Assembly (NCBI GenBank): GCA_027021705.1
Contig: JALUTT010000024.1
Location: 1-25,810, forward strand
Direction: 5' to 3'
From: Anaerolineae bacterium
GTDB lineage: Bacteria > Chloroflexota > Anaerolineae > S140-20
DNA: 25,810 bases
Below the pieces are notes generated by a model that worked only from the letters and a program-made list of their open reading frames with translations, was not told the DNA's origin and searched no databases. Position 1 is the stretch's first letter; the number at the start of each line of letters is the position of its first letter. The translations under genes and the position numbers were made by a program. Positions 1 to 25,080 of the stretch are shown here, in pieces.

Positions 1-164
1 TGCCCCACCTGGGCGTCTATCCCCGCCTTCTGACGCACCTCCCATTCCAGCCCCCCCAGGATGGCCCCCAGCCGGCCTTCCACAGCCCGCAACTCCCCGG
101 CGGTCTGTTGCCATTGAGCCCCCAGCGCCCGAAGCTGGGCCGGATCAACCCTAATGCGCACCAT
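1..164 (-). CDS. WXG100-like N-terminal domain protein, probable T7SS substrate (partial, runs off window edge; absent from ORF track)
   Basis: Manual translation from ATG at 164 (GGAGGAGGG 5 nt upstream): MVRIRVDPAQLRALGAQWQQTAGELRAVEGRLGAILGGLEWEVRQKAGIDAQVG..., open to the edge. 36/45 residues are identical to the N-terminus of 3792..5087. Overlaps the stop of 151..2061. Confidence 0.9.
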   Translation of the reverse strand, partial: MVRIRVDPAQLRALGAQWQQTAGELRAVEGRLGAILGGLEWEVRQKAGIDAQVG

Positions 165-2061: not shown

Positions 2062-2067
2062 AATCCA

Positions 2068-3714: not shown

Positions 3715-3791
3715 CGGTCTCTCCTCGTCCTCTGCGCCGTTAGTCCGCCCTTCACTACGCATAGACCTCGGGGACCCCCCTCGAGGCGACA

Positions 3792-5087: not shown

Positions 5088-5119
5088 TCGATCCCTCCTC
5101 ACCACAGCCCAACCCCGGC

Positions 5120-10237: not shown

Positions 10238-10272
10238 AGGAAGCCCTCCCTGGTCATCTCCGCAAGGGGCGG

Positions 10273-10308
10273 GGCCGGAGGGGGCGGACGGGCGCCCACC
10301 CTCCGGCC
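10273..10308. other. GC-rich stem-loop between the WXG100 gene and essC (possible attenuator or mRNA 3' stabiliser)
   Basis: Perfect 10-bp inverted repeat ggccggaggg (10273-10282) / ccctccggcc (10299-10308); no U-tract. Confidence 0.5.
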
Positions 10309-10321
10309 TCCACCCACGGAC

Positions 10322-10591
10322 TTACCCCTGATCGGCAGCCTCGAAGCGGGCAGCGATGGCGTCCAGTTGCTGGGCAATGCCGTTGAGCAGCTCCACGAAC
10401 TGGTTCATCGTCGTCCGCCACTGCTGGAACTCCTGGTAGAAGCGCTGCTTGGTCAAGCCCTCCCACTCCGGCTCCAGGCTGCTGATGGTGCTCTGGAGTC
10501 GGCTGACCATCTCCTGGCTCTGACCACTGGCTTGCCGGAACTGTTGGCCTACCTGCCGTACCTGCTCGGGGGTAATCTTGATGCGTGTCAT
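10322..10591 (-). CDS. WXG100 family (EsxA/YukE-like) type VII secretion protein
   Basis: 89 aa from ATG at 10591 (AGGAGG upstream): MTRIKITPEQV...central EWEG...RFEAADQG. Helix-turn-helix hairpin pattern. Confidence 0.96.
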   Translation of the reverse strand: MTRIKITPEQVRQVGQQFRQASGQSQEMVSRLQSTISSLEPEWEGLTKQRFYQEFQQWRTTMNQFVELLNGIAQQLDAIAARFEAADQG

Positions 10592-10849
10592 AACCAAACC
10601 TCCTGTTCAGACTTCAGATTTTCAGCCGATGGGCGATCTCCTTCCGGCGGGCCTGGGCCCTGCCGAGCCGACCGGTGCCGGACCGGTCGGAAGTCAACCC
10701 ACAAACCCTTAATCCCGAACGATGACGATGATCCCTTTTGAGCGTCGCATCACCTCCTTCACTTGTCGGTTTTCACCCCTTTGCTTCCCCATCCTCCTGG
10801 TCCCACGCCCGACGGCCGCCGGGCCACCGGGACCTTTCAATCTGCTCTT

Positions 10850-11542
10850 CTAGTCTATCCGCTTCCAGATGTACCCTTCGTCTCCTGAGTCCGTGGGTTC
10901 CTCTTCCGCCTGGATCGGGCCTACGCCGGGGGAGCGCCAGGCCCCTTGGTCCCCATAGCTCCTCCTCTCGGATGGCGGAGGGAGGGGCTCCGTGGGGGAG
11001 TAGATCGAGGACCCGGCCGGGTGTCTATCCCCGTAAGCGATGTCCGGAGTTCGGCGGCTCAGCCCCTCTACTGCCTTGCTTAATTCCACGAGGTCCAGGA
11101 TGCCACCGACGATGACGACGAGGTAACCTCCCACAACCCCCCAGAAGCCCGGTTGATACTCAACCACGAAGCCGTAGGAAGCGGCTTGCTCTCGGAGGCC
11201 GGAGAATCGGTACAAAAGGATTGCCAGGGGCAGCGCCCCTAGGCCGATCAGGCCATACCCGTCTGCCTGGGTTGCCCTTCCCCGCTCGTAGGCCCGATAG
11301 GCCAGGGCAAGGACTCCGAGGCCGGCGGCGAGCACCAAGAAGAGGAGCGGATCGCCTGAGGCCTGAGCCCCGTATCCACCACCGGGGGTTGTGCCGGTGG
11401 CCAGCTCCCATCCGCTCACACGGACCGGTTCGCCACCGCAGGAGACCAGGACCCACGGCAGGAAGAAGCAAAGGATGGCCACGGCCGCCCCACCTGATCC
11501 CACTTTGTATCCCCTCGAAAGCTTGGTCAGGATTTCGTCCAT
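10850..11542 (-). CDS. Four-TM membrane protein with Pro/acidic C-terminal tail
   Basis: AAGGAGG RBS; four hydrophobic segments (LCFFLPW motif in the first); ends DEGYIWKRID. Confidence 0.85.
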   Translation of the reverse strand: MDEILTKLSRGYKVGSGGAAVAILCFFLPWVLVSCGGEPVRVSGWELATGTTPGGGYGAQASGDPLLFLVLAAGLGVLALAYRAYERGRATQADGYGLIGLGALPLAILLYRFSGLREQAASYGFVVEYQPGFWGVVGGYLVVIVGGILDLVELSKAVEGLSRRTPDIAYGDRHPAGSSIYSPTEPLPPPSERRSYGDQGAWRSPGVGPIQAEEEPTDSGDEGYIWKRID

Positions 11543-11616
11543 CAGAAGTCCTCCTTAACAGGTTTTGGGACTTGCTCCCCTCTTCTCTCCCGGCCGGGTA
11601 GCTATGGAGGGCTGCC

Positions 11617-12462
11617 TTACTCCTCAATTCTCCACAGCCGCACGGTGCCGTCGTCCGAGGCCGAGGCCAGCAGCGCCCCGTCGGGGGAGAAGGCGACGCT
11701 TCTCACCCAATCGGTGTGCCCCTCCAGCGTCCGCAGGGGCTCTCCGTCGGCCACCCGCCACAGCCGCACGGTGTCGTCGTCCGAGGCCGAGGCCAGCAGC
11801 CTCCCGCTGGGGGAGAAGGCGACGCCCCACACCGAACCGGTGTGCCCCTCCAGGGTCCGCAGGGGCTCTCCGTTGTCCACCCGCCACAGCCGCACGGTGC
11901 CGTCGGCCGAGGCCGAGGCCAGCAGCCTCCCGCCGGGGGAGAAGGCGACGCTCAACACCGGACCGGTGTGCCCTTCCAGGGTCCGCAGGGGCTCTCCGTC
12001 GTCCACCCGCCACAACCGCACGGTGCCATCGGCCGAGGCCGAGGCCAGCAGCCTCCCGCTGGGGGAGAAGGCGACGCTTCTCACCCAATCGGTGTGGCCC
12101 TCCAGGGTCCGCAGGGGCTCTCCGTCGGCCACCCGCCACAGCCGCACCGTTTTGTCATCGGAAGTCGAAGCCAACAGCGCCCCGTCGGGGGAGAAGGCGA
12201 CGCTTCTCACCCAATCGGTGTGGCCCTTCAGCGTCCGCAGGAGCGCCCCGTCGGCCACCCGCCACAGCCGCACGGTCCCGTCAGCCGAGGCCGAGGCCAG
12301 CAGCGCCCCGTCGGGGGAGAAGGCGACGCCCCGCATCCAGTCGGCGTGGCCCTTCAGGGTGCGCACCGGCTTGTAGTCGGTGGCCGATACCAGGCGTGTC
12401 GTGCCGTCCGAGAGCTTGATGGCCAGCAAGGTCCCGTCGGGGGAGAAGGCGACGCCGATGGC
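11617..12462 (-). repeat. Coding tandem array of ~126-bp WD40 units (7 copies)
   Basis: Recurring ggggagaaggcgacgc...cacagccgcacggtg blocks with 42-codon period. Confidence 0.9.
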
Positions 12463-12951
12463 GCCGGGAGCCTCCTCCTGCGACGCCAAGGCAGCCCCCA
12501 CGCCGATGGCCGCGAGGAAGGCCGCGAGGCTCAGCAGCCCCCAGGCCCACCAAGGGGTGCCGGAGGCCCGCTGTGCCTTCACCCTTGCCCTGGGCGCCGG
12601 TTTTATTTGCACAGATGCCGAGTCCGCCCGGTCGGAGGGCGGGTGGCCGGGACCGGTCTGCCGGCTCTTTCGCTTGCGCTGCGGCTCAATCTTCTCCGAA
12701 GCCGCGAAGATGATGACGAGAATTAGGAGGACCTGGACTATCCGCACGGGAATCGCCGCTTCTTCAGGGATGGGGATGAGGAAGGCGAGCAGCAGAATCC
12801 CCAACAAGCGGGCTGCCTGTCCCCGCACCCGACGCCGCCGGGTGACCTTGATCTCCCCTCGGATCAGGGCGATGAGCCCGAAGATCACGAGGAGGAGAAG
12901 GCACATCATCGCCACGATGAGTTGGCCTGCCAGCACCGAGGGATCTACCAT
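11617..12951 (-). CDS. Membrane-anchored WD40 beta-propeller protein (7 repeats)
   Basis: Start reassigned to MVDPSVLAG (GAAGGAG upstream). Three to four N-terminal hydrophobic segments, then 7 repeats of the type GHTDWVRSVAFSPDGxLLASASxDGTVRLW. Confidence 0.92.
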   Translation of the reverse strand: MVDPSVLAGQLIVAMMCLLLLVIFGLIALIRGEIKVTRRRRVRGQAARLLGILLLAFLIPIPEEAAIPVRIVQVLLILVIIFAASEKIEPQRKRKSRQTGPGHPPSDRADSASVQIKPAPRARVKAQRASGTPWWAWGLLSLAAFLAAIGVGAALASQEEAPGAIGVAFSPDGTLLAIKLSDGTTRLVSATDYKPVRTLKGHADWMRGVAFSPDGALLASASADGTVRLWRVADGALLRTLKGHTDWVRSVAFSPDGALLASTSDDKTVRLWRVADGEPLRTLEGHTDWVRSVAFSPSGRLLASASADGTVRLWRVDDGEPLRTLEGHTGPVLSVAFSPGGRLLASASADGTVRLWRVDNGEPLRTLEGHTGSVWGVAFSPSGRLLASASDDDTVRLWRVADGEPLRTLEGHTDWVRSVAFSPDGALLASASDDGTVRLWRIEE

Positions 12952-13075
12952 ATTCCCTTCTCCTTCAAGCGCCGGGGCCGACCTTCTCTCGGCGGCCGCC
13001 GCTTGGCCATCAATCGCCCACCAACCCGTTCGGTCCGAGCCGTCCCAGGGTGGTTTACCGTCCTTGGCCCTCTCA

Positions 13076-13097
13076 GCCCGACGATGGATCGTCGGGC
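13076..13097. other. Perfect intergenic inverted repeat
   Basis: gcccgacgat-gg-atcgtcgggc, just downstream of the kinase-WD40 stop codon; no U-tract. Confidence 0.4.
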
Positions 13098-13124
13098 GAC
13101 TCTCCCTACTCAACGTCCCGATGA

Positions 13125-14845
13125 CTACTCCCCAACTCCCCACAGCTGCACGGTCCCGTCGGTCGAGGCCGAGGCCAGCAGCGCCCCGTCGGGGGAGAAG
13201 GCGACACTCCATACCACATCGGTCTGCCCCTCCAGGGTCCGCAGGGGCTCCCCGTCGGCCACCCGCCACAGCCGCACCGTGGTGTCGGTCGAGGCCGAGG
13301 CCAGCAGCGCCCCGTCGGGGGAGAAGGCGACGCCCCACACCTTGTCGGTGTGTCCTTCCAACGTGCGCAGGAGCTCCCCGTCGGCCACCCGCCACAGCCG
13401 CACGGTGCCGTCGTCCGAGGCCGAGGCCAGCAGCGCCCCGTCGGGGGAGAAGGTGACATCCCACACCCCGTCGGTGTGGCCCTCCAGCGTCCGCAGGGGC
13501 GCTCCGTCAGCCACCCGCCACAGCCGCACGGTGCCGTCGTCCGAGGCCGAGGCCAGCAGCGCCCCGTTGGGGGAGAAGGCGACGCTTCTCACCCAATCGG
13601 TGTGCCCCTCCAACGTCCGCAGGGGCTCGCCATCGGCCACCCGCCACAGCCGCACGGTGCCATCCCAGGAGGCCGAGGCCAGCAACTCCCCGTCGGGGGA
13701 GAAGGCGACGCTCAACACCGGACCGGTGTGCCCCTCCAGCGCCCGCAGGGGCTCCCCGTCGGCCACCCGCCACAGCCGCACGGTGCTGTCGCCTGAGGCC
13801 GAGGCCAGCAGCGCCCCGTCGGGGGAGAAGGCGACGCTTCTCACCGAACCGGTGTGCCCCTCCAGCGTCCGCAGGGGCTCGCCATCGGCCACCCGCCACA
13901 GCCCCACGGTGCCGTCCAAAGAGGCCGAGGCCAGCAGCGCCCCGTCGGGGGAGAAGGCCACCCCCACTAGGGCTCCGTGCCTTCGCAGAGTGCGCCGAAG
14001 GGAGCCATCGGACACCCGCCACAGCCGTATCCCGTCAAGGCCGCTTGAGGCCAGGGTGGCCCCGCCAGGGGAGAAGGCGACGCTCCAGACCAGACCGAGG
14101 TGCCCTTCCAGGGTCCGCAGGGGCGCCCCGTCGTCCACCCGCCACAGCCGCACGGTGCCGTCGACCGAGGCCGAGGCCAGCAGGTCTCCGTCGGGGGAGA
14201 AGGCGACGCCCCACACCTTGTCGGTGTGTCCTTCCAACGTGCGCAGGGGCTTCCCGTCGTCCATCCGCCACAGCCGCACGGTGCCGTCGTCCGAGGCCGA
14301 GGCCAGCAGCGCCCCGTCGGGGGAGAAGGCGACGCTCCATACCACATCGGTCTGCCCCTCCAGGGTCCGCAGGGGCTCCCCGTCGGCCACCCGCCACAGC
14401 CGCACGGTGCCGTCGGCCGAGGCCGAGGCCAGCAGGTCCCCGTCGGGGGAGAAGGCGACGCTCCATACCACATCGGTGTGCCCGTCCAGGGTCCGCAGGA
14501 GCTTCCCGTCGGCCACCCGCCACAGCCGCACGGTGCCGTCATCCGAGGCCGAGGCCAGCAGGTCCCCGTCGGGGGAGAAGGCGACGCTCCATACCACACC
14601 GGTGTGCCCTTCCAACGTGCGCAGGGGCTCCCCGTCGGCCACCCGCCACAGCCGCACGGTGCCGTCGGCCGAGGCTAAGGCCAGCAGGTCCCCGTCGGGG
14701 GAGAAGGCGATCCCCCACGTCCCGACCTCCATCTTGGCCGACCAGATGGGGGTCAAGGTCTCCCCGTCGTACAGGGAGAACCCCATACCGGTTGCAACGG
14801 CCACCAGCCTCCCGTCGGGGGAGTAGGCGATCCAGTAAGCCATCC
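13125..14845 (-). repeat. Coding tandem array of ~126-bp WD40 units (14 copies, probably two 7-bladed propellers)
   Basis: 14 VAFSPxG-type units counted. The first unit and the unit 7/8 junction are the most divergent. Confidence 0.9.
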
Positions 14846-17009
14846 CGTAGCCCAACCGGCCCACCGGCCCCACCCCTCCGGCGTTGTCCGCCGAGATGGG
14901 GACGGTCGGCAGTGTGGGGGTCGTCTGCCCTCCCCGGCCGCCTTCAGGACGGGAGGGCGGGGTGGGCGTCGGCGTCGGTGCCTCCGTGGCCGTTGGGGCA
15001 ACGGCCACTGCCGACATCGGCGTCGGCGCCTCCTCGGCCGTTGGGGCAGGGACCGGCGTGTCCTTAACCGTTCCGACTTGAACGACCACCGGCGGCTCGA
15101 CGATCACCTGGGGGACGGGGTGGGCGAGCAACCGCCGCGTGGCGACGCCTATCCCGATGCTCATCACCAGGGTCAGCAGCCCCCAGATCCACCGCCACCT
15201 CTTTGGCCTCCCTTTGGCCGCTTCCTGCCGGCTCGGGACGGAGGCCGGTGTCCGAGGTACCTTCTCCCTGACCTCCGCCAGGAGTTCGGCGGCCCATCGC
15301 CCCTGCCGGACGTAGCCGGGCCGAGCCCGGACCACCTCCTGCAGCGCCCGTTCCGCTTCCTGCCACTTCCCCGCGCGGTAGGCGGCCACCCCTTCGTCGA
15401 ACCGTGCTGCCAGCGCCGCCTCCTCTTCACACCGTCGCCGGGCGTTCTCCCAGTGAGTTCGTCGGACCAGGTCCTCGGCCTCTTCGACCAACTGCCGGTA
15501 GAGGGCTGCCGCCTCCTCCCATTGCCCTGCCTGCTCCAGCGCTTCGGCCTCTTCCGCCCTCTCCTCCAAGCGCCGCTCGTCGAAAAGGCCTGCCGGCTCC
15601 GCCTCCTCCAAGGCCGCCTCGGGTACCTGCCACAGCCGGATTGTCCCGTCGGACGAGGCCGAGGCCGGCGGTTCCCCCTCGGGGGAGAAGGCAACATCGC
15701 CCTCCATCGTGGTCTCCAAGGAGGCCGGAGCCTGTAACGCTTCACCGGGGGAGGGGGCAGCGCTTCTCACCCCCTCGGTCTCCTCCCACACCACCGTTTC
15801 GTCCCGCTCCCTCTGGCCGACGTCCGCCGGGGGTTTCGGCTCCTCAATCCTCCCCTCCAGATCCTGCACCGTGGCGGCCAACTCTTCCGCCAGCCCACTC
15901 CCGGCCGGGACCATCGTCTGGGCCTGCCGGTACGCCTCCAACGCGCTCTTCCACGCCTCCTGGGCCTCGAAGCGTCGTGCCAGGGCCATCAGCGCCCGTA
16001 CCGCCTCCAGCCCCCCGGCCTCCACCTCCTCTTCCTCTCGGCCCTCCACCGCTGCCGGTCTCTCCTCCGCCTCGACCTCCCCGACCGGTCGGGGGACCTC
16101 CTCCGGCAGGACCACCAGCCACTCCCCGAAGGTGGGGCACTCGGCCAGCCCTTCGCTCTGCCAGGCCCGCTCGAAGAGCTGCCGGACCCCTCCTCCCCAT
16201 CGTTCCTCCAACACCTCCACCAGCAGTTGATACCGCCTCGTCTCCCGTTGCATCTCCTCCGGCGCAAAGAAGGTCTCTTCCCACCCGGCCTTCCGGACCC
16301 GCTCGTCGCACCACCCCAGCATCTCCCCCAGCAACACGGCACCGGCGAACCGATCCGCCTGGGCCCCCCACACTCCCTCCGGCGCTCTCCGGTGGACGTA
16401 GCCGGACGATCCCCCGGGCAGCAGTTCCGGCCGCTCCACGTTCGGCCCGTACATCTGCTCCACATCCACCAGAACGACTGCCTCCCGGTCCCCGCCACCA
16501 TCGGCGACCAGGCCGGGCAGCATCACGTTAGAGCCGGACAGGTCGCAGTGGGCCAGCCTCCGCTGCTCCAGCGTTGCCAGCACCTCCGCCAGCCCTCGCG
16601 CCAGCGTCAGGCTCTCCCCCGGCTCCAGGGCCCGTTTCGTCACCATCACCTCCAACCAGGTAGGCCCTTCCACCCACGGCATCAGCACCGCGTAGGTCAG
16701 GTCGGGATACGCCCGCAACAGGGCCTGATGCTCCTGGGGCGTCAGCACCGTGCGCCGGCAGACCTGCAGGCCGGGCAGCGCCGCGTAGGGCGCGATGCGC
16801 TCTGCCTGGATGACCAGGGCCGGCGAGCGGTAGCGGGGTTTGAAAACCTTGAGGGCCTGCGCCTCGCCCCTCTCGGGGACCACTTGATAGACGATGGCCT
16901 GGCGGCCTTCTTGACCGTAGGGTATCCCCGGCGCGGCCGGGTGCTCAGCAACCCGGTAGGTCGTCTCACCGATCACCAACGCTTCCCCGACTTCAGGTTG
17001 GAAGGCCAT
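13125..17009 (-). CDS. Atypical Ser/Thr kinase (TerY-P-triad type) + TPR-like helices + TM + 14 WD40 repeats
   Basis: N-terminal GQEGRQAIVY, ALKVFK, LMPWVEG, HCDLSGSN, LVDVEQ. TPR-like segments (WKSALEAYRQA, QWEEAAALY, KWQEAERAL). TM WIWGLLTLVMSIGIGVA, Pro/Thr linker, then 14 counted WD40 repeats. GGAGG RBS. Confidence 0.92.
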   Translation of the reverse strand: MAFQPEVGEALVIGETTYRVAEHPAAPGIPYGQEGRQAIVYQVVPERGEAQALKVFKPRYRSPALVIQAERIAPYAALPGLQVCRRTVLTPQEHQALLRAYPDLTYAVLMPWVEGPTWLEVMVTKRALEPGESLTLARGLAEVLATLEQRRLAHCDLSGSNVMLPGLVADGGGDREAVVLVDVEQMYGPNVERPELLPGGSSGYVHRRAPEGVWGAQADRFAGAVLLGEMLGWCDERVRKAGWEETFFAPEEMQRETRRYQLLVEVLEERWGGGVRQLFERAWQSEGLAECPTFGEWLVVLPEEVPRPVGEVEAEERPAAVEGREEEEVEAGGLEAVRALMALARRFEAQEAWKSALEAYRQAQTMVPAGSGLAEELAATVQDLEGRIEEPKPPADVGQRERDETVVWEETEGVRSAAPSPGEALQAPASLETTMEGDVAFSPEGEPPASASSDGTIRLWQVPEAALEEAEPAGLFDERRLEERAEEAEALEQAGQWEEAAALYRQLVEEAEDLVRRTHWENARRRCEEEAALAARFDEGVAAYRAGKWQEAERALQEVVRARPGYVRQGRWAAELLAEVREKVPRTPASVPSRQEAAKGRPKRWRWIWGLLTLVMSIGIGVATRRLLAHPVPQVIVEPPVVVQVGTVKDTPVPAPTAEEAPTPMSAVAVAPTATEAPTPTPTPPSRPEGGRGGQTTPTLPTVPISADNAGGVGPVGRLGYGMAYWIAYSPDGRLVAVATGMGFSLYDGETLTPIWSAKMEVGTWGIAFSPDGDLLALASADGTVRLWRVADGEPLRTLEGHTGVVWSVAFSPDGDLLASASDDGTVRLWRVADGKLLRTLDGHTDVVWSVAFSPDGDLLASASADGTVRLWRVADGEPLRTLEGQTDVVWSVAFSPDGALLASASDDGTVRLWRMDDGKPLRTLEGHTDKVWGVAFSPDGDLLASASVDGTVRLWRVDDGAPLRTLEGHLGLVWSVAFSPGGATLASSGLDGIRLWRVSDGSLRRTLRRHGALVGVAFSPDGALLASASLDGTVGLWRVADGEPLRTLEGHTGSVRSVAFSPDGALLASASGDSTVRLWRVADGEPLRALEGHTGPVLSVAFSPDGELLASASWDGTVRLWRVADGEPLRTLEGHTDWVRSVAFSPNGALLASASDDGTVRLWRVADGAPLRTLEGHTDGVWDVTFSPDGALLASASDDGTVRLWRVADGELLRTLEGHTDKVWGVAFSPDGALLASASTDTTVRLWRVADGEPLRTLEGQTDVVWSVAFSPDGALLASASTDGTVQLWGVGE

Positions 17010-17033
17010 AGCCTCTTCCTCCTAGTCCCCTTG

Positions 17034-17528
17034 CTAATCCAGTTGTCTCCAGACGTACCCTTCGTCCTCCTCCTGAGCCGGGCCGTCCTCGTCGAACCCC
17101 GGAGGTCCTCCCTCCGGCATCCCCCCCACGTCAACAGGTCCCGGGGGCTCCTCTCCCATCGGAGCCACGCCGAGTTCTCCGGGCTCCAGAAGGGGACTCC
17201 ACCCCACCACAGGCCCAGATTCTTCCCCTCCCTCAGGCCTCTCAAAGGACCTCGAAGGAAGGGGCGGCGGGACTTCGGAGGGCCGGAACACCAGCCGAGC
17301 CCCGTCCCAGGCTCCCGCGTCGGCCAGGCTCTCGTCGGGGGCCAGCGCCCGGCCCGGCGGTTCGGCCAGAATCTCGTAGGAGATGGACCAGCCGGTGGTG
17401 CCCTGATCCCAGCCCAGGGCATCGGCGATCATCGCCGCCAGCCGTTGGGCCTCCACCTCCGCCGGCACCTCCAGGTCCCGCCCTCGCGCCTCACCCTCCC
17501 GCTCGACCGTCACGATCACCCGGTGCAT
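17034..17528 (-). CDS. EsaB/YukD-like ubiquitin-fold T7SS protein with acidic Pro/Gly-rich tail
   Basis: Start reassigned to MHRVIVTV (GAGGAAAGG upstream). VIVTV..RDLEVPAE..LAAMIADALGW..LAPDESLADAGAWDGARL matches the YukD pattern. Ends DEGYVWRQLD. Confidence 0.85.
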   Translation of the reverse strand: MHRVIVTVEREGEARGRDLEVPAEVEAQRLAAMIADALGWDQGTTGWSISYEILAEPPGRALAPDESLADAGAWDGARLVFRPSEVPPPLPSRSFERPEGGEESGPVVGWSPLLEPGELGVAPMGEEPPGPVDVGGMPEGGPPGFDEDGPAQEEDEGYVWRQLD

Positions 17529-17545
17529 CGTCGCCCCGCCTTTCC

Positions 17546-18361
17546 TCACGCCGCCGGAAGTGGCTCCGGCAGCACCCGGTCCATCACCCGCCGCAGCGCC
17601 TCTCGGGCCTCTCCGGCGGTGCAGGGGATGACCTCCACCCAATCCTCTCCCCGGCGGGTGAAGGCCCTCAGTCGCCACAGGCCGTTCTCCCCCTCCAATA
17701 GGCCCATTCCGGCTACCTCCCAGGTGACCTCCCGGCGGGCCAGGGCCACCAGCGCACCGTTGCGGGTCGGGCGGGCCAGCGTTTCCGTCAGTGCGACCGC
17801 CGTCTCGCTCCCCAGGCCGGCCCGCTCTAGGGCGGCTTGAGCTGCTTCAGGGCCTGAGTCCTCGATCAACGTTCGGGCCTGGGTCAACTCCGTTCCCCGG
17901 AGCCTGCCGCTTCCCCCCGGTGCCGCCGGCTGGTCGTCCAAGCCCAGCATCGCCGTCACCCGCTCGAAGACGGAGGCAGGGTCCTCCAGGGCGGTCAGCC
18001 GGTAGCCCTCGGGCTCCGGCGCTTGCTCGACGGCCAGGTGGCGGGTTAGGTGGAAATAGCGCACCGTTGGCGCCCCGCCGGCGGGCGTCACCGTCAGGAG
18101 GAAGGAAGCCTCCGGGAAGGCGCAGGTGCCCACCAGGGTAGCTACGGCCACGTCCATCACGATGCTCCCGTCGGGCTGCACCTCGATAAAACGACGGGCG
18201 GCCAAGGCTTCTCGAGCCTGCTGCCACGCGGCTTCGATCTCTTCGGCCAACCAGCCCCAAAAGGGGTCCTCGAGGCCCAACAGCATATCGGCCCCCAGCA
18301 AGCCGGCCAGGAAGACCATCTCCTGGGCCGAACACGTTATGGTAGGAACATCGTTGTCCAT
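17546..18361 (-). CDS. Hypothetical protein, probable T7SS chaperone/accessory factor (EsaE/DUF5081- or EspG-like)
   Basis: 271 aa soluble protein. N-terminus SAQEMVFLAGLLG..LLGLEDPF..AREALAARRFI resembles, by recollection, EsaE/EspG-type N-termini. Lies between a WXG gene and yukD. The ORF is secure; the family is tentative. Confidence 0.6.
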   Translation of the reverse strand: MDNDVPTITCSAQEMVFLAGLLGADMLLGLEDPFWGWLAEEIEAAWQQAREALAARRFIEVQPDGSIVMDVAVATLVGTCAFPEASFLLTVTPAGGAPTVRYFHLTRHLAVEQAPEPEGYRLTALEDPASVFERVTAMLGLDDQPAAPGGSGRLRGTELTQARTLIEDSGPEAAQAALERAGLGSETAVALTETLARPTRNGALVALARREVTWEVAGMGLLEGENGLWRLRAFTRRGEDWVEVIPCTAGEAREALRRVMDRVLPEPLPAA

Positions 18362-18470
18362 AGGCTCACTCCCTCTGTGTGTATCCTCCTCCCATCCGCG
18401 GGCGATCTGCCTTGTTCCATCCCTTGGCGTATCCTCTCCTCCTCTCGCAGGTCAACCTCCCACCGGAGGC

Positions 18471-19031
18471 TCAGGAACCCCGGGGCCGGCGTCCGGGAAG
18501 CTCGGCGGCCCGCTCCACTCGCCCCTGCCACCGGGGGGCGATCGGGCGCAGCGGGCGGATCCCCACCCCAGAGCTGAGAGGCCGGACGGCAAGAGGCACG
18601 ACGATGGCCGTCACCCGCCGGTCCTGCTGCCCGTCCAGACCCAGCCATCGCTCGACCAGGGCGTGAGGGAAACGCGCCTGCGGTCGCAAAGCCTCGAAGC
18701 GGAGGGCCCACGCTCGTTGTACCTGGACGAAGGCGTCGGCGACCTGTCCGAGGGCGACCATACCAGCCCGGTCGGCCTCCTCGAAGCGGGCTGCTCGCTC
18801 AAGGAGGAAACGGGCCAGAGCATCCGCCCGGTCGGCCAGCGTCCGCAGGCGGGCCCGAGCCTGCCACCACCGGGCCTCCACGTCGGCCCGGTAGGCTCCC
18901 TCCCACTCCTCCGCGCTCAGCCGGTTCCATGCTCCGAGGAGACGGCTTTCCAAGGCGTAGAGCCCGTTGGCCGCCTCGGAGAGACTCCGGGCCGCCTCCC
19001 GCAGGTGATCGGGGTCTACCCGAATGCGCAT
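18471..19031 (-). CDS. WXG100-domain protein with ~90-aa C-terminal extension
   Basis: Start MRIRVDPDHL (GGAGAGG upstream); EEWEG motif; RFEEAD; 186 aa. Confidence 0.85.
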   Translation of the reverse strand: MRIRVDPDHLREAARSLSEAANGLYALESRLLGAWNRLSAEEWEGAYRADVEARWWQARARLRTLADRADALARFLLERAARFEEADRAGMVALGQVADAFVQVQRAWALRFEALRPQARFPHALVERWLGLDGQQDRRVTAIVVPLAVRPLSSGVGIRPLRPIAPRWQGRVERAAELPGRRPRGS

Positions 19032-19113
19032 CTCGGCCTCTCCAGTCCGTCTCAATCCTCCGTGGCCGTTTCTCCAACTCGATCAACCGATCCTAGGTAC
19101 CTCCGACGGCCTT

Positions 19114-20673
19114 TCAGGGTGTCGGTGCCGACGTCAGGACCACCGTCGGCGTCGGCGTCCAGGTCCCCGTCACGGTGGGGGTGATCGTCGGTGTCGGCGT
19201 CCAGGTCCCCGTCACGGTGGGGGTGATCGTCGGCGTCAGGGCCTGGGTTTCCGTCACGATGGGGGTGGCCGTCGGCACCAGGCCGGGCGGCCCGGTGGGC
19301 ATCACCGCAGGGGTGACGGTCGCAAAAGGCGTGGCCGTCGGTGTCACCATCGGGGCCACCGTGCTGGCCTTGGGCGGGAATCCGCCGGCAGGACCCGGGG
19401 GAGGCGAGCCCAAGGGGGCAGTCCTGGGGACCGTCTCCGTCGGCGGCCCCGGTGTGCCCCTCAGGCCCCTTCCCGGCTCCCCCGGCGGAGGCGGAACCTG
19501 ACCTGGCCTTGAGGGGGTGTTCCGATCCCAGACCGGTCCCCTTGTGGTCGGCGTCGCACCAAAGAAGAGGTTGTGAAGGGGGCCTCGTTGGGGAACGATG
19601 AGCTCGGCTGCGATGATGCCCATCAGAACGACTGCGGCCAGGGCGACGGCTACTCCCTTCAGCCACACCGACTCCTTCGCCGGAGGGGGGATGTCTTTCT
19701 TCAACCGGGGGCTCACCTGCCGAGTCGTCTCCGCCCCGGAAGGACGACGTTGCGGCACGGCGCCAGGCACCGATCTGGTCCGGCTGGGGACCGATGATGG
19801 CTCGATCCAAACCTCTAGGAAGGCGATGTCATCGCTGGTGGCCGCGCTGCCGGCCTCCTCGATCATCCTCTGCAAGGTCTGACGGGATAAGTCCTTCTCC
19901 CGTCCATCCAGAGCTGCCAGCCCGTCGGTGTAGGCCATCAGCCAGGCCAAACGTTGCTCCCCATCCCTCAGAGGGGCGACGAAACAGTGGGGCCTTCCTC
20001 CCACAGGGCCTCGGTGGGAGGACCAGCGCCGGGCGATGTCAAAGTTACCTCCCAGGGGCACCGGTTGTTTCCGGTCGTTCCACAATCGCAGACGCGAATC
20101 CCCCATCCAGGCCAGCACGATCCGTCCTTCCGGCAGGCCCTCCCGGGGCAGGTCTATGCGTCCACAGGCGAAGGTGCTCTCGCTCCCCAGCCTGCGTTTC
20201 TCCTCCAGCACCTCGCGCAACAAGGGCGGGAGGTCGGACGGCAGGGGATGGCGCTCTACCAAGCTCTTGGCCGGCTCCACAATCTCCCACAGGTAATCAT
20301 CCAAGGCGGCGGCGATGGTCTCCCGGTCCATCGTCTCGGGCAGGCGATCTCTCAACCACGCCACCAGGCTGTCCCCTAGGTAGCGGGATGCCAGGTCACC
20401 GTAGAAGGACTGGCCCACCCCGTCACACAAGGCGAAGACGAAGCTTCCTTCCCCTTCGCAAAAGGCCAGGTAATCCTGTCCTCGGTCGCCGGCTGCCCGC
20501 GTCTCGGCCGCACGGGCATAGGCGTACAGGAGGGGAAACTGCCCCCTCTCGAACTTCGCCTGCGTCTCTCGGTCTTGGGGAAGCCGTACTTCCTGACATC
20601 GAGATGGGGCCTCTCCCGTCTTTTTGGGGACCGAAAGCCGACGGGTGACAGGGCGATGCGGCCTCTCGCTCAC
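19114..20673 (-). CDS. PP2C-family protein phosphatase with TM and Pro/Thr-rich extracellular tail
   Basis: Start reassigned to GTG 20673 (AAAGGAGG 5 nt upstream, just after the vWA stop). Motifs GQD, ALCDGVG, GSESTF, WMGDS, YTDGL, SDDIA. TM VAVALAAVVLMGIIAAELIV. Confidence 0.88.
   Translation of the reverse strand: MSERPHRPVTRRLSVPKKTGEAPSRCQEVRLPQDRETQAKFERGQFPLLYAYARAAETRAAGDRGQDYLAFCEGEGSFVFALCDGVGQSFYGDLASRYLGDSLVAWLRDRLPETMDRETIAAALDDYLWEIVEPAKSLVERHPLPSDLPPLLREVLEEKRRLGSESTFACGRIDLPREGLPEGRIVLAWMGDSRLRLWNDRKQPVPLGGNFDIARRWSSHRGPVGGRPHCFVAPLRDGEQRLAWLMAYTDGLAALDGREKDLSRQTLQRMIEEAGSAATSDDIAFLEVWIEPSSVPSRTRSVPGAVPQRRPSGAETTRQVSPRLKKDIPPPAKESVWLKGVAVALAAVVLMGIIAAELIVPQRGPLHNLFFGATPTTRGPVWDRNTPSRPGQVPPPPGEPGRGLRGTPGPPTETVPRTAPLGSPPPGPAGGFPPKASTVAPMVTPTATPFATVTPAVMPTGPPGLVPTATPIVTETQALTPTITPTVTGTWTPTPTITPTVTGTWTPTPTVVLTSAPTP
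19151..19234 (-). repeat. In-frame 42-bp tandem duplication in the PP2C tail
   Basis: gtcggcgtccaggtccccgtcacggtgggggtgatcgtcgg(t/c) twice; encodes TPTITPTVTGTWTP repeats. Confidence 0.85.
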
Positions 20674-20690
20674 CTCAGCCTCCTTTCCGC

Positions 20691-21446
20691 TCAGCGGGCC
20701 GACATCCCGGTGGAGGTGGACATCTGGAACCCCATCGCCACCAACTCCGGGCTCGTCCCCGGCAGGAGCATCAGCGCCCTCGGATCTAGGCGGTAGCCCA
20801 TCTCCCGCATGATCTGCTGATAGCTGGCCGGCAGCGGTGAGGAGATCGCCCGGAGCTTGCGAGCATAGTCGCTGGCAAGCTTCGTCTCCGGCAGGATGCC
20901 CGGCCATCGGTGCGGGTCCGTGATCGGCTCGGGGAGGATCTCATCGGAGATGAAGATGTTTTCCACCAGGACGTGACCGTCGGGGACCGCCATCCGCATA
21001 ATGCGCTTTACGATGGGCTCAGGGTCCTCCCCCGTGTACTCGCCGTCGGTGATGTGGCAGACCAGGGGGGCCGGGCAGTGGCGCAAGTTGGGCAGCTCGT
21101 CCCGTAGGAGCTTCTCGACCTGGGCAAAGGCTCTGGCAGTATCGGTGGTGCGCAGCAGACGGAGCTCCGGCGCTCCCAGGCGGGCGACCCGATCCACCGG
21201 CTTGATCCCACCCAGCAGGTCGTACACGTGGTCGCTGTAGGCGAACAGGGCCAGGCGGTAGCGCGGTGAGATGCGTCCTCCCTTGGTCGAGCGGAAAACC
21301 ATCTGGCGCAGGGAGGCTTGGAGCGCTTCCATCACCACGTCAATGCGCCGTTTGCCCCCCAACGGCCTATTCATCGAAGCGCTCACATCCAGCAGGTAGA
21401 TGATGAGGGCCGGCGTCTTGCTGGTTGCTAGAGTCTCGTAGGCCAT
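20691..21446 (-). CDS. von Willebrand factor A domain protein (TerY-like)
   Basis: Start MAYETLATSKTP; MIDAS motif LLDVSAS, T in TTDT, HITDGE. Directly upstream of the PP2C gene. Confidence 0.9.
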   Translation of the reverse strand: MAYETLATSKTPALIIYLLDVSASMNRPLGGKRRIDVVMEALQASLRQMVFRSTKGGRISPRYRLALFAYSDHVYDLLGGIKPVDRVARLGAPELRLLRTTDTARAFAQVEKLLRDELPNLRHCPAPLVCHITDGEYTGEDPEPIVKRIMRMAVPDGHVLVENIFISDEILPEPITDPHRWPGILPETKLASDYARKLRAISSPLPASYQQIMREMGYRLDPRALMLLPGTSPELVAMGFQMSTSTGMSAR

Positions 21447-21460
21447 AGTTCTTCCCCCTT

Positions 21461-21919
21461 TCACATCACCGTCTCCCCCACTGCTTCAACCAGGGGCTGG
21501 ATCCACGTCGGCGTCGTCTCCAACGGTTGGACCGCGAGCGGCAGGGGGAGGGCGGTGACCCGGGTCCCTTCCAGCAGCGACGCTGCCTCCGGGACCACGG
21601 CCACCCTTCCCCCCCGCCGCTCAACCCCCTCCACCAGGTCTTCGAAACGCGGATCCGCCCGCCAGGCGGCGATGGCCGCCTCGCCACCCGGGATGATCAA
21701 CACCCCCACCGAGGGCAACGACCGTAACACCTCGCTCAACGAAGTGTCCGGCACGATGACCACCCCGTGCATCCCGCGAATCCCCCGCCGCTTTAACCCC
21801 ACCGTTGTCAGGGGTAGTCCTGCTCCCCGCAGCCCGCTGATCAGCGTTGTAACTTGGACCTCATCGAACCCATCGGCCAGAAGGAGCAGAAACCCTCTGG
21901 GACGATCTGATGCCTTCAT
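21461..21919 (-). CDS. DJ-1/PfpI-fold protein lacking the catalytic Cys; first gene of the cluster
   Basis: LLLADGFDE..GMHGVVIVPD..LIIPGG pattern; no cysteine in 152 aa; AAGGTGAGGGGG RBS. Confidence 0.8.
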   Translation of the reverse strand: MKASDRPRGFLLLLADGFDEVQVTTLISGLRGAGLPLTTVGLKRRGIRGMHGVVIVPDTSLSEVLRSLPSVGVLIIPGGEAAIAAWRADPRFEDLVEGVERRGGRVAVVPEAASLLEGTRVTALPLPLAVQPLETTPTWIQPLVEAVGETVM

Positions 21920-22013
21920 AGGTCCCCCTCACCTTTCGCTCGACGAGATGGCAGGCCGCTTCCTCAAGCCAACGAGCCCTCTCTCGATCTCGCCCCGGCT
22001 CCCTATGCTCACC

Positions 22014-22022
22014 AGTGTATCA
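22014..22022 (-). promoter_or_regulatory. Candidate extended -10 promoter of the T7SS cluster
   Basis: Minus strand reads TGaTACACT (TGn + -10). There is no consensus -35; that position is occupied by repeat motifs. Confidence 0.55.
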
Positions 22023-22028
22023 CAGAAA

Positions 22029-22190
22029 AACTGCGAGGAACTACGGACTTGCTTCAAATTGGTGAAGTCCACTGCGAGATCACGGGAAAAACTGCGGGAA
22101 ACTGCGGAGAACTTCAGAAAACTGCGAATTCCTTCAGATACCTGCGAGGAACTTCAGAGGGCTGCGAGTTTCTTTGAACACCTGCAAAAG
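22029..22190. promoter_or_regulatory. Array of 10-bp-phased direct repeats (CTGCG / CTTCA cores), candidate operator array
   Basis: Cores start at 22031, 22041, 22052, 22072, then every 10 bp from 22092 to 22182. Confidence 0.7.
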
Positions 22191-22214
22191 TCGCCAAAAA
22201 CCACGATAGGGTGC

Positions 22215-22243
22215 TTGACTTCTCGCTTGTGATGGCGTATACT
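22215..22243 (+). promoter_or_regulatory. Sigma70-type promoter of the NB-ARC regulator
   Basis: TTGACT (22215-22220), 17-nt spacer, TATACT (22238-22243); 43 nt upstream of the ATG. Confidence 0.8.
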
Positions 22244-22286
22244 CGGTGAGTGGGCAAGCTGCCGATAGAAGCTGCGAGGGGGGTAA

Positions 22287-23771
22287 ATGATGCCGTCTAT
22301 GCCGGACACCTTTCCCGACCTTATCCGTGGGGCTCTGCGGCAATGGGGGGATCTCCAGCCCGATCTTACCGGCTGGAATCGCTACCTGAAGATCAGCGCC
22401 TTCGGGGCCACCGGCCCCCATCCCCCTCCGGCCATCCTGGCCCGAGCGGTCCGGGAGTGGATCTACGAGGGCCTCAAAGCGCTGGAAACCGAGGATCCTC
22501 AAGCGGCCCAACTGCTGACCTGGCGCTTCCTCGATGAAGAGAGCGTCTCTCAGGTCGCCCACAGGGCCCACCTGAGCCCTTCCCAAGTGATGCATCGGCA
22601 GCGGATGGCCATCAGAGCCCTGGCCCAGGTGATGTGGCGGGGTGAGTTGGCCCTGCGGCGGCAACGGATGGCCCACATCCAGGCTCGGCTGGAGACGCCG
22701 TACCCCTCTCACCTCTTCGGCGTGGCCGATAAACAGCATGAACTCCTTGATAGTCTCTCCGATCACCGTTCTCGTTGGGTGATCGTCCTAGACGGTATCG
22801 GCGGCATCGGCAAGACCGCGCTGGCCGACTGGGCCGTTCGCCAGGTGATCACCGCTCCCTTCTACGCGGACATCGCTTGGATCAGTGCCCGACAGGAGGT
22901 CTTCACCCTGTGGAGCGGGCTGAGCGTCCGGCCTGCCTGTCCGGCCCTCACCTTGGAGGGATTCCTGGATGCCCTGATTGCCCAACTGGATCTGTCGGAC
23001 CTGCGCCCTCTCTCTCCGACCCGCAAGCTCGACGAGGTTCGCGCTCTCCTCAAGGAGCAACCCTACCTGATCGTGGTGGACAACCTGGAAACGGTTGCCG
23101 ATTATCAGGCCCTTGTACCCCACTTGCTCGACATGGCGACTCCCACCCGCTTTCTCCTTACCAGCCGGTACAGCCTGCGGGCCTATCCCGGCGTTTACAG
23201 CATCACCCTTCAGGAGCTTTCCTGGCCCGACAGCCTGGAGTTGATGCGCCACGAGGCCCACGAACGCGGCATCCATCTGCTGGGCGAAGCCTCGGAGGAA
23301 GCCCTCTCCCAAATCTACCGGGTCGTTGGAGGCAACCCTCTGGCCCTCAAACTGGTCGTCGGCCAGATCGGCGTCTTCGCCCTGCCAACCATCCTGGAGA
23401 ACTTGCGTCAAGCCCGAGGACGTCGCATTGAGGAGATCTACCGCTACATCTACTGGCGAAGCTGGTATGCTCTCAGCGACGCGGCCCGCCGGGTCCTGTT
23501 GAGCATGCCCCTGGTCTCCAGCCACGGAGGGACGCTGGAGCAGATCGCCGCCAGCAGCGAACTGCCCATCTCCCAGGTTGTGGATGCCATCGAGGAGCTG
23601 GTGCGCCTCTCGCTGGTTCTCCAAGTGGGCGATCTTCGGGAGCAGCGCTACACCATCCATCAGCTCACCGAGACCTTCCTGATGCGCGAGGTGGTGAAAT
23701 GGCAACAGGCATCGTCGGACCCAGCTCTCACCCCACCGTCTGGCGCACGTACTTCTGCCGGGCCGTCGTAA
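22287..23771 (+). CDS. STAND NTPase transcriptional regulator: sigma70 region-4-like HTH + NB-ARC + winged helix
   Basis: LLTWRFLDEESVSQVAHRAHLSPSQV (HTH); Walker A GIGGIGKT; Walker B LIVVDNLE; LLTSR; GNPLAL (GxP); YTIHQL (MHD-like). Confidence 0.9.
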   Translation: MMPSMPDTFPDLIRGALRQWGDLQPDLTGWNRYLKISAFGATGPHPPPAILARAVREWIYEGLKALETEDPQAAQLLTWRFLDEESVSQVAHRAHLSPSQVMHRQRMAIRALAQVMWRGELALRRQRMAHIQARLETPYPSHLFGVADKQHELLDSLSDHRSRWVIVLDGIGGIGKTALADWAVRQVITAPFYADIAWISARQEVFTLWSGLSVRPACPALTLEGFLDALIAQLDLSDLRPLSPTRKLDEVRALLKEQPYLIVVDNLETVADYQALVPHLLDMATPTRFLLTSRYSLRAYPGVYSITLQELSWPDSLELMRHEAHERGIHLLGEASEEALSQIYRVVGGNPLALKLVVGQIGVFALPTILENLRQARGRRIEEIYRYIYWRSWYALSDAARRVLLSMPLVSSHGGTLEQIAASSELPISQVVDAIEELVRLSLVLQVGDLREQRYTIHQLTETFLMREVVKWQQASSDPALTPPSGARTSAGPS

Positions 23772-24916
23772 ACAACGTCCAGTACTGGCTTGACCGGATC
23801 CAGCACCGATCCTACCCTGTCCCGGATCGGGAGTGGCCCAACGTCCAGAAAGCCGTCGCCGCTGCCCTGGAGATCGAAGAGGCCTGGCCCACCGGAGTCA
23901 GGCTGGCCCTGGCCCTCCGCGCCGAGGTGAAGCTGCGACAGGGCGCCTTGTGGACTACCTGGCGCGGCTATCTAGAGCGCATTGTGGAACGCGGAAGCCA
24001 ACAAGCGGACAGTGACCTGGTGGCCGAGGCGTTGCTCCAACTGGGGGAGTTGGAACAGCAGCAAGGGGCGTGGGAAGAGGCGGAAAGGCACTACCGGAGG
24101 GCTCAGACCCTTTTCCAGGTGCTCCGCAAAGCCTCCCGCGAGGGGGAAGCCCTCGTCAACCTGGCCTACCTGTATGCTTTCCAGGATCGCTTGGAAGAAG
24201 CCATTGCCTGTTGTCAACAAGCCGTGGCTTGCTTCCGGTGCTCAGACGATGCTCGCGGTCTCTCCATCGCCCACAACACCTGGGGATGCATCTACAACCG
24301 GCAGGCTCGATGGGGCCTGGCTCTCGAACATCTAACCCAATCCCTGAACGCGGCGCGTCGTAGCGGGGACCGGCTCCAGGAGGCCCGGGTGTGGCAGAAC
24401 ATCGGTGTTGTCTACGGACAGCAGGGGCAGCGCGATCAAGCCCTGGCCTACCTTCAGACGGCCGCCGGCGCCTACGCAGTGGCCGGTGCGCCGGCCTACC
24501 TGGCGAGTGCTCTGGTGGGCATCGGGGTGATCCACTACAAAGAGGGCCGCTGGGATCTGGCGCGACGGGCCTACCACCTGGCCGAATCGCTCCTCGACCA
24601 ACAGCCCGTCCTGCTGGAGCAAGCGCAACTGGCCAACAACCTGGGGCTCCTCTACCGGGAGATGGGGCGGGAACTCCAGGCTGAAGCTTACTTTGGCCGA
24701 GCGGTTCAGCTCTGGCGACGACTCGACAGCCATCTGGGAACCGCCCGCAGCTTGCTCAACCTGGCCCGCCTCTACCGCCGCTATGGGCGGGAGGCCGATG
24801 CTCACCATGCCCTGGCACAAGCCCAGGAGCACCTGGATGCCTGTCCCGCCACACCAGCCCGAGAAGCGTTACGACAGCAGATTCTGGCAGAGCTGACCGT
24901 CATAGGGGAACTGTAG
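23699..24916 (+). CDS. Tetratricopeptide repeat protein (probable sensor partner of the NB-ARC protein)
   Basis: About 7 TPR-like units (AEALLQLG..WEEAERHY, ARVWQNIGVVY, AQLANNLGLLY). GAGGTGG upstream of the ATG. Overlaps the NB-ARC gene end by 73 nt. Confidence 0.88.
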   Translation: MATGIVGPSSHPTVWRTYFCRAVVNNVQYWLDRIQHRSYPVPDREWPNVQKAVAAALEIEEAWPTGVRLALALRAEVKLRQGALWTTWRGYLERIVERGSQQADSDLVAEALLQLGELEQQQGAWEEAERHYRRAQTLFQVLRKASREGEALVNLAYLYAFQDRLEEAIACCQQAVACFRCSDDARGLSIAHNTWGCIYNRQARWGLALEHLTQSLNAARRSGDRLQEARVWQNIGVVYGQQGQRDQALAYLQTAAGAYAVAGAPAYLASALVGIGVIHYKEGRWDLARRAYHLAESLLDQQPVLLEQAQLANNLGLLYREMGRELQAEAYFGRAVQLWRRLDSHLGTARSLLNLARLYRRYGREADAHHALAQAQEHLDACPATPAREALRQQILAELTVIGEL

Positions 24917-25067: not shown

Positions 25068-25080
25068 CCCGTTGAGGTGG

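Follow-up and report, generated by a model that had tools for sequence, protein, structure and literature searches.

STAND ATPases are best known as switches of cell death and immunity, and Apaf-1, CED-4 and plant NLRs work via nucleotide-dependent oligomerisation. GutR has the domain order N-terminal HTH, NOD and TPR, and we know of no long phased array of sites for this protein. Bacterial STANDs named as transcription factors are MalT, GutR and AfsR (PMC10936776, PMC4381067, PMC10427625), with MalT and GutR of Bacillus subtilis described as the prototypical bacterial STAND regulators, activated by an inducer and then ATP (PMC10936776). MalT of Escherichia coli multimerises in an inducer- and ATP-dependent manner, forming open ring-like multimers of varied size, and this leads to cooperative binding to repeated MalT boxes (PMC4381067, PMC10427625), four of which are described at malPp (PMC10427625). 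The afs box recognised by AfsR consists of two 11-bp direct repeats centred at -29.5 and overlaps a poor -35 element, and ATP is described as relieving the autoinhibition of the protein (PMC10936776). For the ECF sigma factors, -35 elements are reported to follow the layout of a G region, AAC and a T-rich part, as in GGAACTT (PMC1540707).

In the stretch of DNA analysed here, a 25.8-kb window, a long array of 10-bp direct repeats lies beside the gene for a predicted regulator that combines a sigma-region-4-like HTH with an NB-ARC ATPase. The best reading of the regulator and its array is as a variant of the MalT/AfsR kind, the sigma-4-headed form being new as far as found; searches of the literature, mostly outside subscription journals, turned up no account of an NB-ARC regulator family with a sigma-4 HTH. 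With the AfsR/SARP-NOD-TPR proteins of actinomycetes the locus shares an N-terminal effector, predicted here to bind DNA, followed by an NB-ARC-type NOD and a TPR sensor, as well as direct repeats one helical turn apart, of which the distal pair at 22025-22047 is placed alike on a predicted - strand promoter. It differs from AfsR in a head that is sigma-region-4-like and not an OmpR-type winged helix with BTAD, in an array of at least 13 units rather than 2, in a TPR protein encoded by a separate gene (directly downstream of the regulator in 24 of the 29 loci scanned, as in the window), and in its occurrence in Chloroflexota, as judged from its relatives. MalT carries a C-terminal LuxR-type HTH and a MalT-type NOD instead of NB-ARC, is a single polypeptide and acts on few boxes per promoter. 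GutR is likewise a single polypeptide. The ECF sigma region 4 is the best structural match to the modelled N-terminal domain, and the unit layout of G region, AAC and T is like that of an ECF -35 element, which fits a sigma-4-like fold. However, ECF words occur once per promoter and not every 10 bp as in the window, and the regulator has no sigma region 2 and so is not a sigma factor.

A phased array between two divergent gene sets

The array occupies an intergenic region of 367 bp that parts two divergent gene sets and has a G+C content of 54%, compared with 67.5% in the window. The initial annotation had reported 14 cores here, and all were recovered at the same coordinates on re-reading the sequence. 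On the + strand these are CTGCG at 22031, 22072, 22092, 22102, 22122, 22142 and 22162, CTTCA at 22052, 22112, 22132 and 22152, and the cores CTACG (22041), CTTTG (22172) and CTGCA (22182). The expression CT[GT]C[GA] matches 13 times on the + strand and once on the - strand within 22014-22290, and does not cover the CTACG and CTTTG cores that are also present. In 12 of the 13 + strand matches the coordinate modulo 10 equals 2, the exception being 22031 with a value of 1.

Ten contiguous 10-bp units, with cores starting at 22092, 22102 and so on to 22182, form the core array (22092..22191, + strand) as delimited by direct reading, Tandem Repeats Finder and autocorrelation. From 22102 onward the units alternate between type A (AACTGCGAG) and type B (AACTTCAGA), giving rise to a 20-bp super-period. 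Tandem Repeats Finder returned a period of 10 at 22088-22126 (3.9 copies) and a period of 20 at 22099-22158 (3.0 copies; 75% matches). Autocorrelation over 22086-22191 reached 0.50, 0.64, 0.51 and 0.64 at lags 10, 20, 30 and 40 respectively, against 0.07-0.35 at the remaining lags. None of 5000 dinucleotide-preserving shuffles matched the observed lag-10 or lag-20 autocorrelation, even when the maximum over lags 5-25 was taken, and the outcome was the same for 22014-22243, for 22086-22191 and for the whole intergenic region. The 10-bp period and 20-bp super-period described initially are upheld by these three analyses, and the autocorrelation of the intergenic region that had been proposed as a check gave both peaks beyond all 5000 shuffles. 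No such phased pattern was found elsewhere in the window on either strand, and the four copies of AACTGCG in the window are all inside the array.

Further units flank the core array. The distal pair with cores 22031 and 22041 (22025..22047, + strand) was identified by sequence comparison as a 23-nt near-duplicate of 22086-22108, 87% identical at an offset of 61 bp and one base off register. Two more in-register + strand units lie within 22050..22079, namely CTTCA at 22052 and ACTGCGAG at 22071-22078; between them TGAAG occurs at 22063 in the opposite strand sense, and 22045-22070 forms a hairpin-capable inverted repeat. A degenerate unit on the + strand (22196..22206), 82% identical to AAAAACTGCGA, lies 9 bp ahead of the -35 hexamer in the + strand promoter. 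Lastly, a lone in-phase unit AAGCTGCGAGG with its core at 22272 (22269..22279, + strand) is located in the 5' leader of the regulator, where it overlaps the ribosome-binding site GAGGGGGG. In the units a G-rich part is followed by AAC and T(G/T)C(G/A), and one stretch, 22148-22154, reads GGAACTT exactly. Their cores are conserved and the positions between cores vary from copy to copy, a pattern that points to constraint or selection rather than fresh duplication.

Other descriptions of the same DNA were tried. The 20-bp unit can be read by eye as an imperfect palindrome (TTCAG n4 CTGcgAA), which was dropped because relatives have plain direct repeats. A structured RNA or riboswitch was likewise rejected, as no Rfam match at E <= 1 was returned for 21700-22500 and the predicted fold of the intergenic RNA showed no excess folding energy (z-score of -0.85, with 42 of 200 shuffles as stable).

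The only consensus sigma-70-type promoter of the intergenic region is TTGACT-17-TATACT (22215..22243, + strand), which matches the consensus at 10 of 12 positions and is the predicted promoter of the regulator-TPR operon. On the - strand, the only TGnTAnnnT of the intergenic region is the extended -10 element TGATACACT at 22014..22022, with its hexamer at 22019..22014, for which no -35 consensus was found. The picture of an array between divergent promoters therefore stands with a change of assignment: the extended -10 promoter of the initial annotation is the - strand element, and the consensus promoter serves the regulator and not the T7SS operon. In place of a -35 hexamer, a unit read as TCGCAG ends 8 nt upstream of the TG in TGATACACT, and the units at 22031 and 22041 span about -24 to -40 of the predicted - strand promoter as counted from the sequence. 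Relative to the regulator promoter, the strip lies at about -45 to -220 with the extra unit at about +20 to +30; with the strip so placed in front of the strong promoter of the regulator itself, autoregulation is no less likely than control of the divergent genes.

The first gene of the divergent row encodes a DJ-1/PfpI-family protein (21461..21919, - strand). It is followed on the same strand (151..21464) by genes for VWA, PP2C-like, WXG100 and YukD proteins, two WD40 proteins, an EssC-Ser/Thr kinase fusion (TIGR03928, 1266 bits), a kinase and others. The VWA and DJ-1/PfpI ORFs share 4 nt, and a search for terminators or promoters interrupting the - strand row gave nothing above shuffle expectation. 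At the starts of the T7SS genes the window's word gave isolated PWM matches (for example at 18452 on the - strand, 12 bits, and at 19006) with no clusters.

The NB-ARC regulator and its TPR partner

The regulator (22287..23771, + strand) is a protein of 494 aa, in which a sigma-region-4-like HTH (~48-112) and a long helix (98-132) precede an NB-ARC ATPase (~140-475). The NB-ARC domain is recognised by Pfam (E = 2.2e-9, 37.4 bits against a cut-off of 23.5), and the GxGGxGKT and DNLE columns are invariant across 30 relatives. An AlphaFold2 model of the whole regulator, built from 30 relatives, had a mean pLDDT of 84 and a pTM of 0.81, and its best PDB matches in Foldseek were the NB-ARC modules of Apaf-1, CED-4 and plant NLRs (NRC), with E values of about 1e-11 to 1e-12. 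From what is known of proteins with this fold, it is reasonable to expect that the regulator oligomerises.

In the head of the protein, Sigma70_r4 matched the regulator with E = 5.2e-4 and 19.9 bits, under the Pfam cut-off of 24.1; it was undetected at E <= 0.001 in five HTH-family relatives scanned, and PF04545 is annotated in 15 of 120 relatives among the matches listed. Residues 1-140 were modelled with a pLDDT of 90, and the top structural matches were ECF sigma region 4 domains, including region 4 of SigL (TM 0.69-0.78) and region 4 of SigE on -35 DNA (2h27; TM 0.70, rmsd 2.3 Å). The rmsd to ECF sigma region 4 domains ranged over 2.3-3.2 Å, with Foldseek E values of only 0.14-2 because the N-terminal domain is small. 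The modelled domain resembles sigma region 4 and is a putative DNA-binding domain. Searching the regulator sequence against solved structures gave no match. The PADLOC defence-system models assigned the regulator to no family and the TPR partner to a generic TPR model only.

The TPR protein of 405 aa is encoded immediately downstream (23699..24916, + strand) by an ORF that overlaps that of the regulator by 73 nt, and would represent the sensor half of a STAND protein. Pfam found neither Trans_reg_C nor BTAD in the regulator, which sets it outside the SARP domain definition. GerE was found in neither the regulator nor the TPR protein, and the HTH is N-terminal, so the regulator is not of the LAL (MalT) type either. 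The regulator has the NOD of the STAND transcription regulators together with their repeat sensor, the latter on a separate polypeptide, unlike the single-chain norm.

Phased repeats and their words beside related regulators

A protein search recovered 1313 relatives of the regulator at E <= 0.001, typically about 474 aa in length, of which the closest are 92% (P0001) and 88% (P0002) identical. Most are unnamed or annotated as hypothetical or NB-ARC proteins, and the few that are named come from Anaerolineae or Chloroflexi. For comparison of the upstream DNA, 80 loci were taken from species-representative genomes, with a best regulator identity of 47%. Enough upstream DNA was available in 64 of these (300 bp analysed), and 118 other intergenic regions from the same loci served as the control. 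Tandem Repeats Finder reported 18 repeats of period 10, 11 or 20-22 in the 19.2 kb upstream of the regulators and 46 in the remaining 579 kb, making them 12 times denser upstream, with a match in 18 of the 64 upstream regions. The best self-match had a period of 10 or 11 in 21 of 64 upstream regions compared with 14 of 118 controls. Strong arrays, defined by a self-match of at least 24/40 at period 10 or 11, were present in 10 of 64 and 1 of 118 regions respectively (Fisher p = 1.4e-4). With 10 of 64 passing this strict threshold and 18 of 64 detected by Tandem Repeats Finder, many relatives are without a clear array.

The same periodicity was seen in the spacing of identical 5-mers. Across the 45 loci in which the match covers the HTH, 41 pairs were found at a distance of 10, 74 at 11, 34 at 21 and 39 at 22, compared with 11-30 at other distances. 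No peak at 10-11 or 21-22 bp was present in the 34 loci whose NB-ARC relative lacks the HTH, and the control intergenic regions of the same genomes gave no 10-11-bp signal. Scanning all 429 kb of the 45 HTH loci returned 8 strong arrays, 6 of which flank the regulator-TPR pair: 4 fall within -200 to -61 relative to the start of the regulator, and 2 come directly behind the TPR gene. Analogous arrays stand beside relatives at 35-50% protein identity, and the expectation that orthologous regulators would have such an array alongside is supported by the 10-11- and 21-22-bp excess in the HTH loci, which the controls do not show. NB-ARC relatives at 44-46% identity carry other heads in the same position, either SARP/BTAD (L005, L028) or an XRE HTH (L023, L032), and with these heads on a related NB-ARC the clade looks like one of transcription-factor STANDs whose DNA-binding heads can be exchanged.

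Subfamilies differ in the word that is repeated. No k-mer common to all of the relatives' upstream regions stands out, and the idea of a single family motif was abandoned because the word is subfamily-specific. TCGGACA recurs at 11 bp in L021, L025, L030 and L035; TGTGCG at 10 bp in L016, L019 and L042, with a 31-bp spacing in L015; GnGCA at 10 bp in L027 and L031; GTnCAAA at 11 bp in L018 and L024; and CTnCAA at 11 bp in L008 and L011, to which L022 with AACTCyAA-like units can be added by eye. Nearest to the window's units are CTTCAGA-like units in L003 and CTGCG at 10 bp in L009, and the strict A/B alternation is absent from the relatives' arrays and specific to the window. Within the five groups sharing TCGGACA, TGTGCG, GnGCA, GTnCAAA or CTnCAA, HTH identity is 0.54-0.86, compared with 0.26 between all six groups compared, and NB-ARC identity within the five is only 0.40-0.69, rising to 0.90 for L018/L024. 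In the looser sets, the CTnCAA pairs with L022 and the window with L003 and L009, HTH identity is 25-50%.

Over such divergence, intergenic DNA free of constraint would have lost its word and spacing, which supports a link between the HTH and its word. The repeated word appears to track the HTH subfamily, and as the groups are also protein clades, this co-variation is not independent of descent and is support rather than proof. The assignment of the array to the neighbouring HTH-NB-ARC protein in the initial annotation is strengthened by the family-wide repeats and by the co-variation of word and HTH, both drawn from sequence comparison, and the protein is predicted to bind it.

Second arrays and recurrent neighbours add to this picture. 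A second array of the locus's own word, inverted or on the opposite strand, follows the TPR gene in L008, L011, L018, L024 and L065, and in the first four of these it precedes histidine-kinase or receiver genes. When each array is read in the direction in which its word is TTTGCAG-like, 7-8 nt separate the last unit from a following TGnTAnnnT at 6 of 15 inspected array ends, a geometry noticed by eye before it was counted; the other 9 differ or lack the motif. The six are the - strand ends in the window, L008 and L065, and the second arrays of L008, L018 and L024. With no prior choice of sites, phased repeats (score >= 0.55) precede an extended -10 element in 7 of 505 cases compared with 47 of 27,516 random positions. 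This recurrent geometry speaks for a genuine - strand promoter in the window that depends on the units, and backs the earlier proposal that the copies nearest the operon cover its -35 position. Most of the relatives' arrays have no consensus -35/-10 promoter beside them, and for this reason array-to-promoter distances were not tabulated on that basis.

The proposal that the array controls the T7SS operon did not hold across the family. No relative of the window's WXG100, YukD, EssC, VWA, PP2C-like or kinase proteins was found within 5 kb in the 80 loci. The conserved partner is instead DJ-1/PfpI, a recurrent divergent neighbour detected in 9 of 29 loci by Pfam and in 3 more by tblastn, giving 12 of 80. 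It is possible, from the arrangement of the genes, that the T7SS genes are co-transcribed with DJ-1/PfpI in the window, and any such co-transcription is specific to the window's genome.

Interpretation of the array

The array is probably a cis-regulatory landing strip of the adjacent sigma-4-like-HTH NB-ARC regulator, bound cooperatively as that protein oligomerises. One HTH domain would contact each 10-bp unit. Once the NB-ARC is switched on, the regulator would multimerise on the strip, and through this multimerisation many weak HTH-unit contacts would sum to cooperative occupancy of the whole. If MalT, GutR and AfsR are a guide, ATP and a signal sensed by the TPR partner would together act as the switch. 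Occupancy of the distal units would then recruit RNA polymerase to DJ-1/PfpI and its co-transcribed genes, in the window the T7SS-like row, through a class-II-like activation of the - strand promoter that lacks a -35, where a positive sign of regulation is what we infer. The regulator probably would also tune its own synthesis at the + strand promoter.

The further idea that such a strip presents its sites on one face of the helix holds only approximately, since the period is strictly 10.0 bp compared with roughly 10.5 bp for DNA. Relaxed DNA has a helical repeat of about 10.5 bp, so a 10.0-bp period drifts by about 17 degrees per unit, and ten units could share a face only on twisted or wrapped DNA. 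Full occupancy of the strip would thus imply DNA twisting or wrapping.

The same regulator might instead coat or wrap the strip and repress, chiefly at its own promoter, with the upstream array and the leader unit held together as an autoregulatory operator. The + strand promoter is near consensus, with 10 of 12 matches and a 17-bp spacer, and would therefore need no activator, the in-phase leader unit sits over the ribosome-binding site, and in L001, L014 and L003 a promoter-like element precedes the array and the start codon follows it. Against this, the - strand promoter is without a -35 and has its units exactly where class II activators and, as described, AfsR sit (PMC10936776), and the second arrays of relatives end 7 nt before an extended -10 that lacks a good -35. 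We consider repression unlikely as the explanation of the strip, although the two roles are compatible with each other. A different reader of the sigma-region-4 type, either an ECF sigma on tandem -35-like words or a response regulator of the OmpR/PhoB kind on 10-11-bp direct repeats, appears somewhat more doubtful. The units do resemble the ECF -35 elements reported in PMC1540707, down to the exact GGAACTT at 22148, 11-bp direct repeats are described as typical also of SARP and OmpR-type proteins (PMC10936776), and histidine-kinase or receiver genes adjoin the second arrays of four relatives. Yet even in distant species the arrays go with the HTH-NB-ARC gene, word and HTH change together, no gene for a sigma factor or DNA-binding response regulator was found among the 15 window proteins scanned, and no ECF -10 partner is recognisable by eye.

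Explanations without a dedicated regulator fare less well. A-tracts in phase are known to stimulate promoters downstream of them, and runs of 3-5 A (or AATT, TTT) stand in phase before the core in about 7 of 13 units, such that curvature of the DNA could stimulate the flanking promoters or draw nucleoid proteins. The best conserved positions, however, are the G/C-containing cores and not the A runs, the 10-11-bp signal is missing from control intergenic regions of the same genomes, and curvature leaves the subfamily-specific words unexplained, all of which makes a purely structural role improbable. Neutral replication slippage, in which a recently amplified 20-bp unit has no function, would account for the tandem 20-bp period with its 75% matches and for an alternation peculiar to the window. 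As cores are kept while spacers differ between copies, and analogous arrays accompany distantly related regulators, slippage is very improbable indeed.

Returning to the landing strip, a bolder version, offered as speculation that we think unlikely, is that the regulator is a signal-gated, polymerising stand-in for sigma region 4, with the DNA superhelically wrapped on an open NB-ARC spiral, a defined wrap that the length and strict 10.0-bp period of the strip would impose, and with SARP or XRE heads interchangeable with its own. Its sigma-4-like domains would read ECF-type -35-like words and provide extended -10 promoters with the -35 contact that they lack. If true, promoter recognition would have passed to an oligomerising NB-ARC switch, in what would be an apoptosome- or resistosome-like transcription machine with DNA as its client.

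For the organism, the window regulator may gate a T7SS-like secretion and kinase row, of a kind that is essentially unstudied in Chloroflexota. More broadly, the locus points to a large unstudied family of more than 1300 relatives that combines a sigma-4-like head, an NB-ARC core, a separate TPR protein and phased arrays. The arrays would offer a handle on the regulon of these proteins and on the stoichiometry and geometry of an NB-ARC oligomer on DNA, and the words of the subfamilies may serve as a natural code that relates the recognition helix to its DNA word.

Sequence elements between the divergent promoters

Between the distal units of the 10-bp-phased array, which lies in the intergenic region separating the DJ-1/PfpI gene (- strand) from the HTH-NB-ARC regulator gene (+ strand), a hairpin-capable inverted repeat, GGACTT...AAGTCC, was identified at 22045-22070. 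Within this element TGAAG at 22063 pairs with the CTTCA at 22052, and the inverted repeat is a candidate site that could be bound by a second, dimeric factor. By eye, the word CTCGC was also seen in the upstream part of the spacer of both divergent promoters (22221-22227 and 22030-22036), in each case on the coding strand of that promoter, and its presence in both may be due to chance.

Unit matches and repeats elsewhere

A strong match to the array unit, ACCTGCGAGA (12 bits), is located on the - strand at 18443-18452, in the spacer that separates the WXG100 gene from its neighbouring gene, and is adjoined by a TTGACC word. This match is single, with neither neighbours nor phasing. In L039, one of the fetched loci encoding a relative of the regulator, two arrays of ATCTGCGT-like words with 10-bp spacing were found at 5060-5090 and 5205-5250, approximately 4.4 kb downstream of the L039 regulator and inside a duplicated segment.

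A second repeat occupies 25525-25810 and reaches the window end, consisting of 3.0 copies of a 94-bp unit at 98% identity. The unit is made up of ATCCG(C/T)T words, four of which are spaced 9 bp apart and several of which are followed by TGACAGCC. This repeat is unrelated to the 10-bp array.

Small reading frames

The 94-bp repeat is positioned upstream of an ORF on the - strand (25081-25497), an internal ATG of which begins a 65-aa reading frame (25081-25278, - strand) with a hydrophobic, signal-peptide-like N-terminal part and cysteines close to its end. A + strand ORF at 25018-25560, overlapping the 65-aa frame, gave no Pfam or NCBIfam match.

Among the relatives, a small - strand ORF appears to precede the DJ-1/PfpI gene in L008, L011, L018 and L024, with tool confirmation obtained for that of L018 only. 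The L018 ORF (4454-4636, - strand) encodes a 60-aa peptide that contains a hydrophobic segment and is rich in Cys at its end; followed in the - direction, this ORF comes immediately downstream of the array. In these four loci the small ORF would lie within the intergenic region between the DJ-1/PfpI and regulator genes, which is longer there.

Proteins of the T7SS-like row and the regulator-TPR pair

The T7SS-like row on the - strand encodes an EssC-type T7SS ATPase (5120-10237; TIGR03928, 1266 bits) with three FtsK/SpoIIIE domains and a C-terminally fused Ser/Thr protein kinase domain (residues 1439-1689). Two large WD40 proteins are encoded within the same row and strand (13125-17009 and 11617-13464); the 1294-aa protein contains 13 WD40 repeats and shows weak kinase-like PADLOC matches at residues 106-237.

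In the window, the regulator ORF extends approximately 20 codons beyond the conserved end of the family and overlaps the ORF of its TPR partner by 73 nt (23699-23771). The corresponding overlap or gap is small in the relatives. Throughout the regulator family, separate polypeptides for the NB-ARC module (NOD) and the TPR sensor are the rule (24 of 29 loci), the 919-aa protein of L023, in which NOD and sensor are fused, being an exception.
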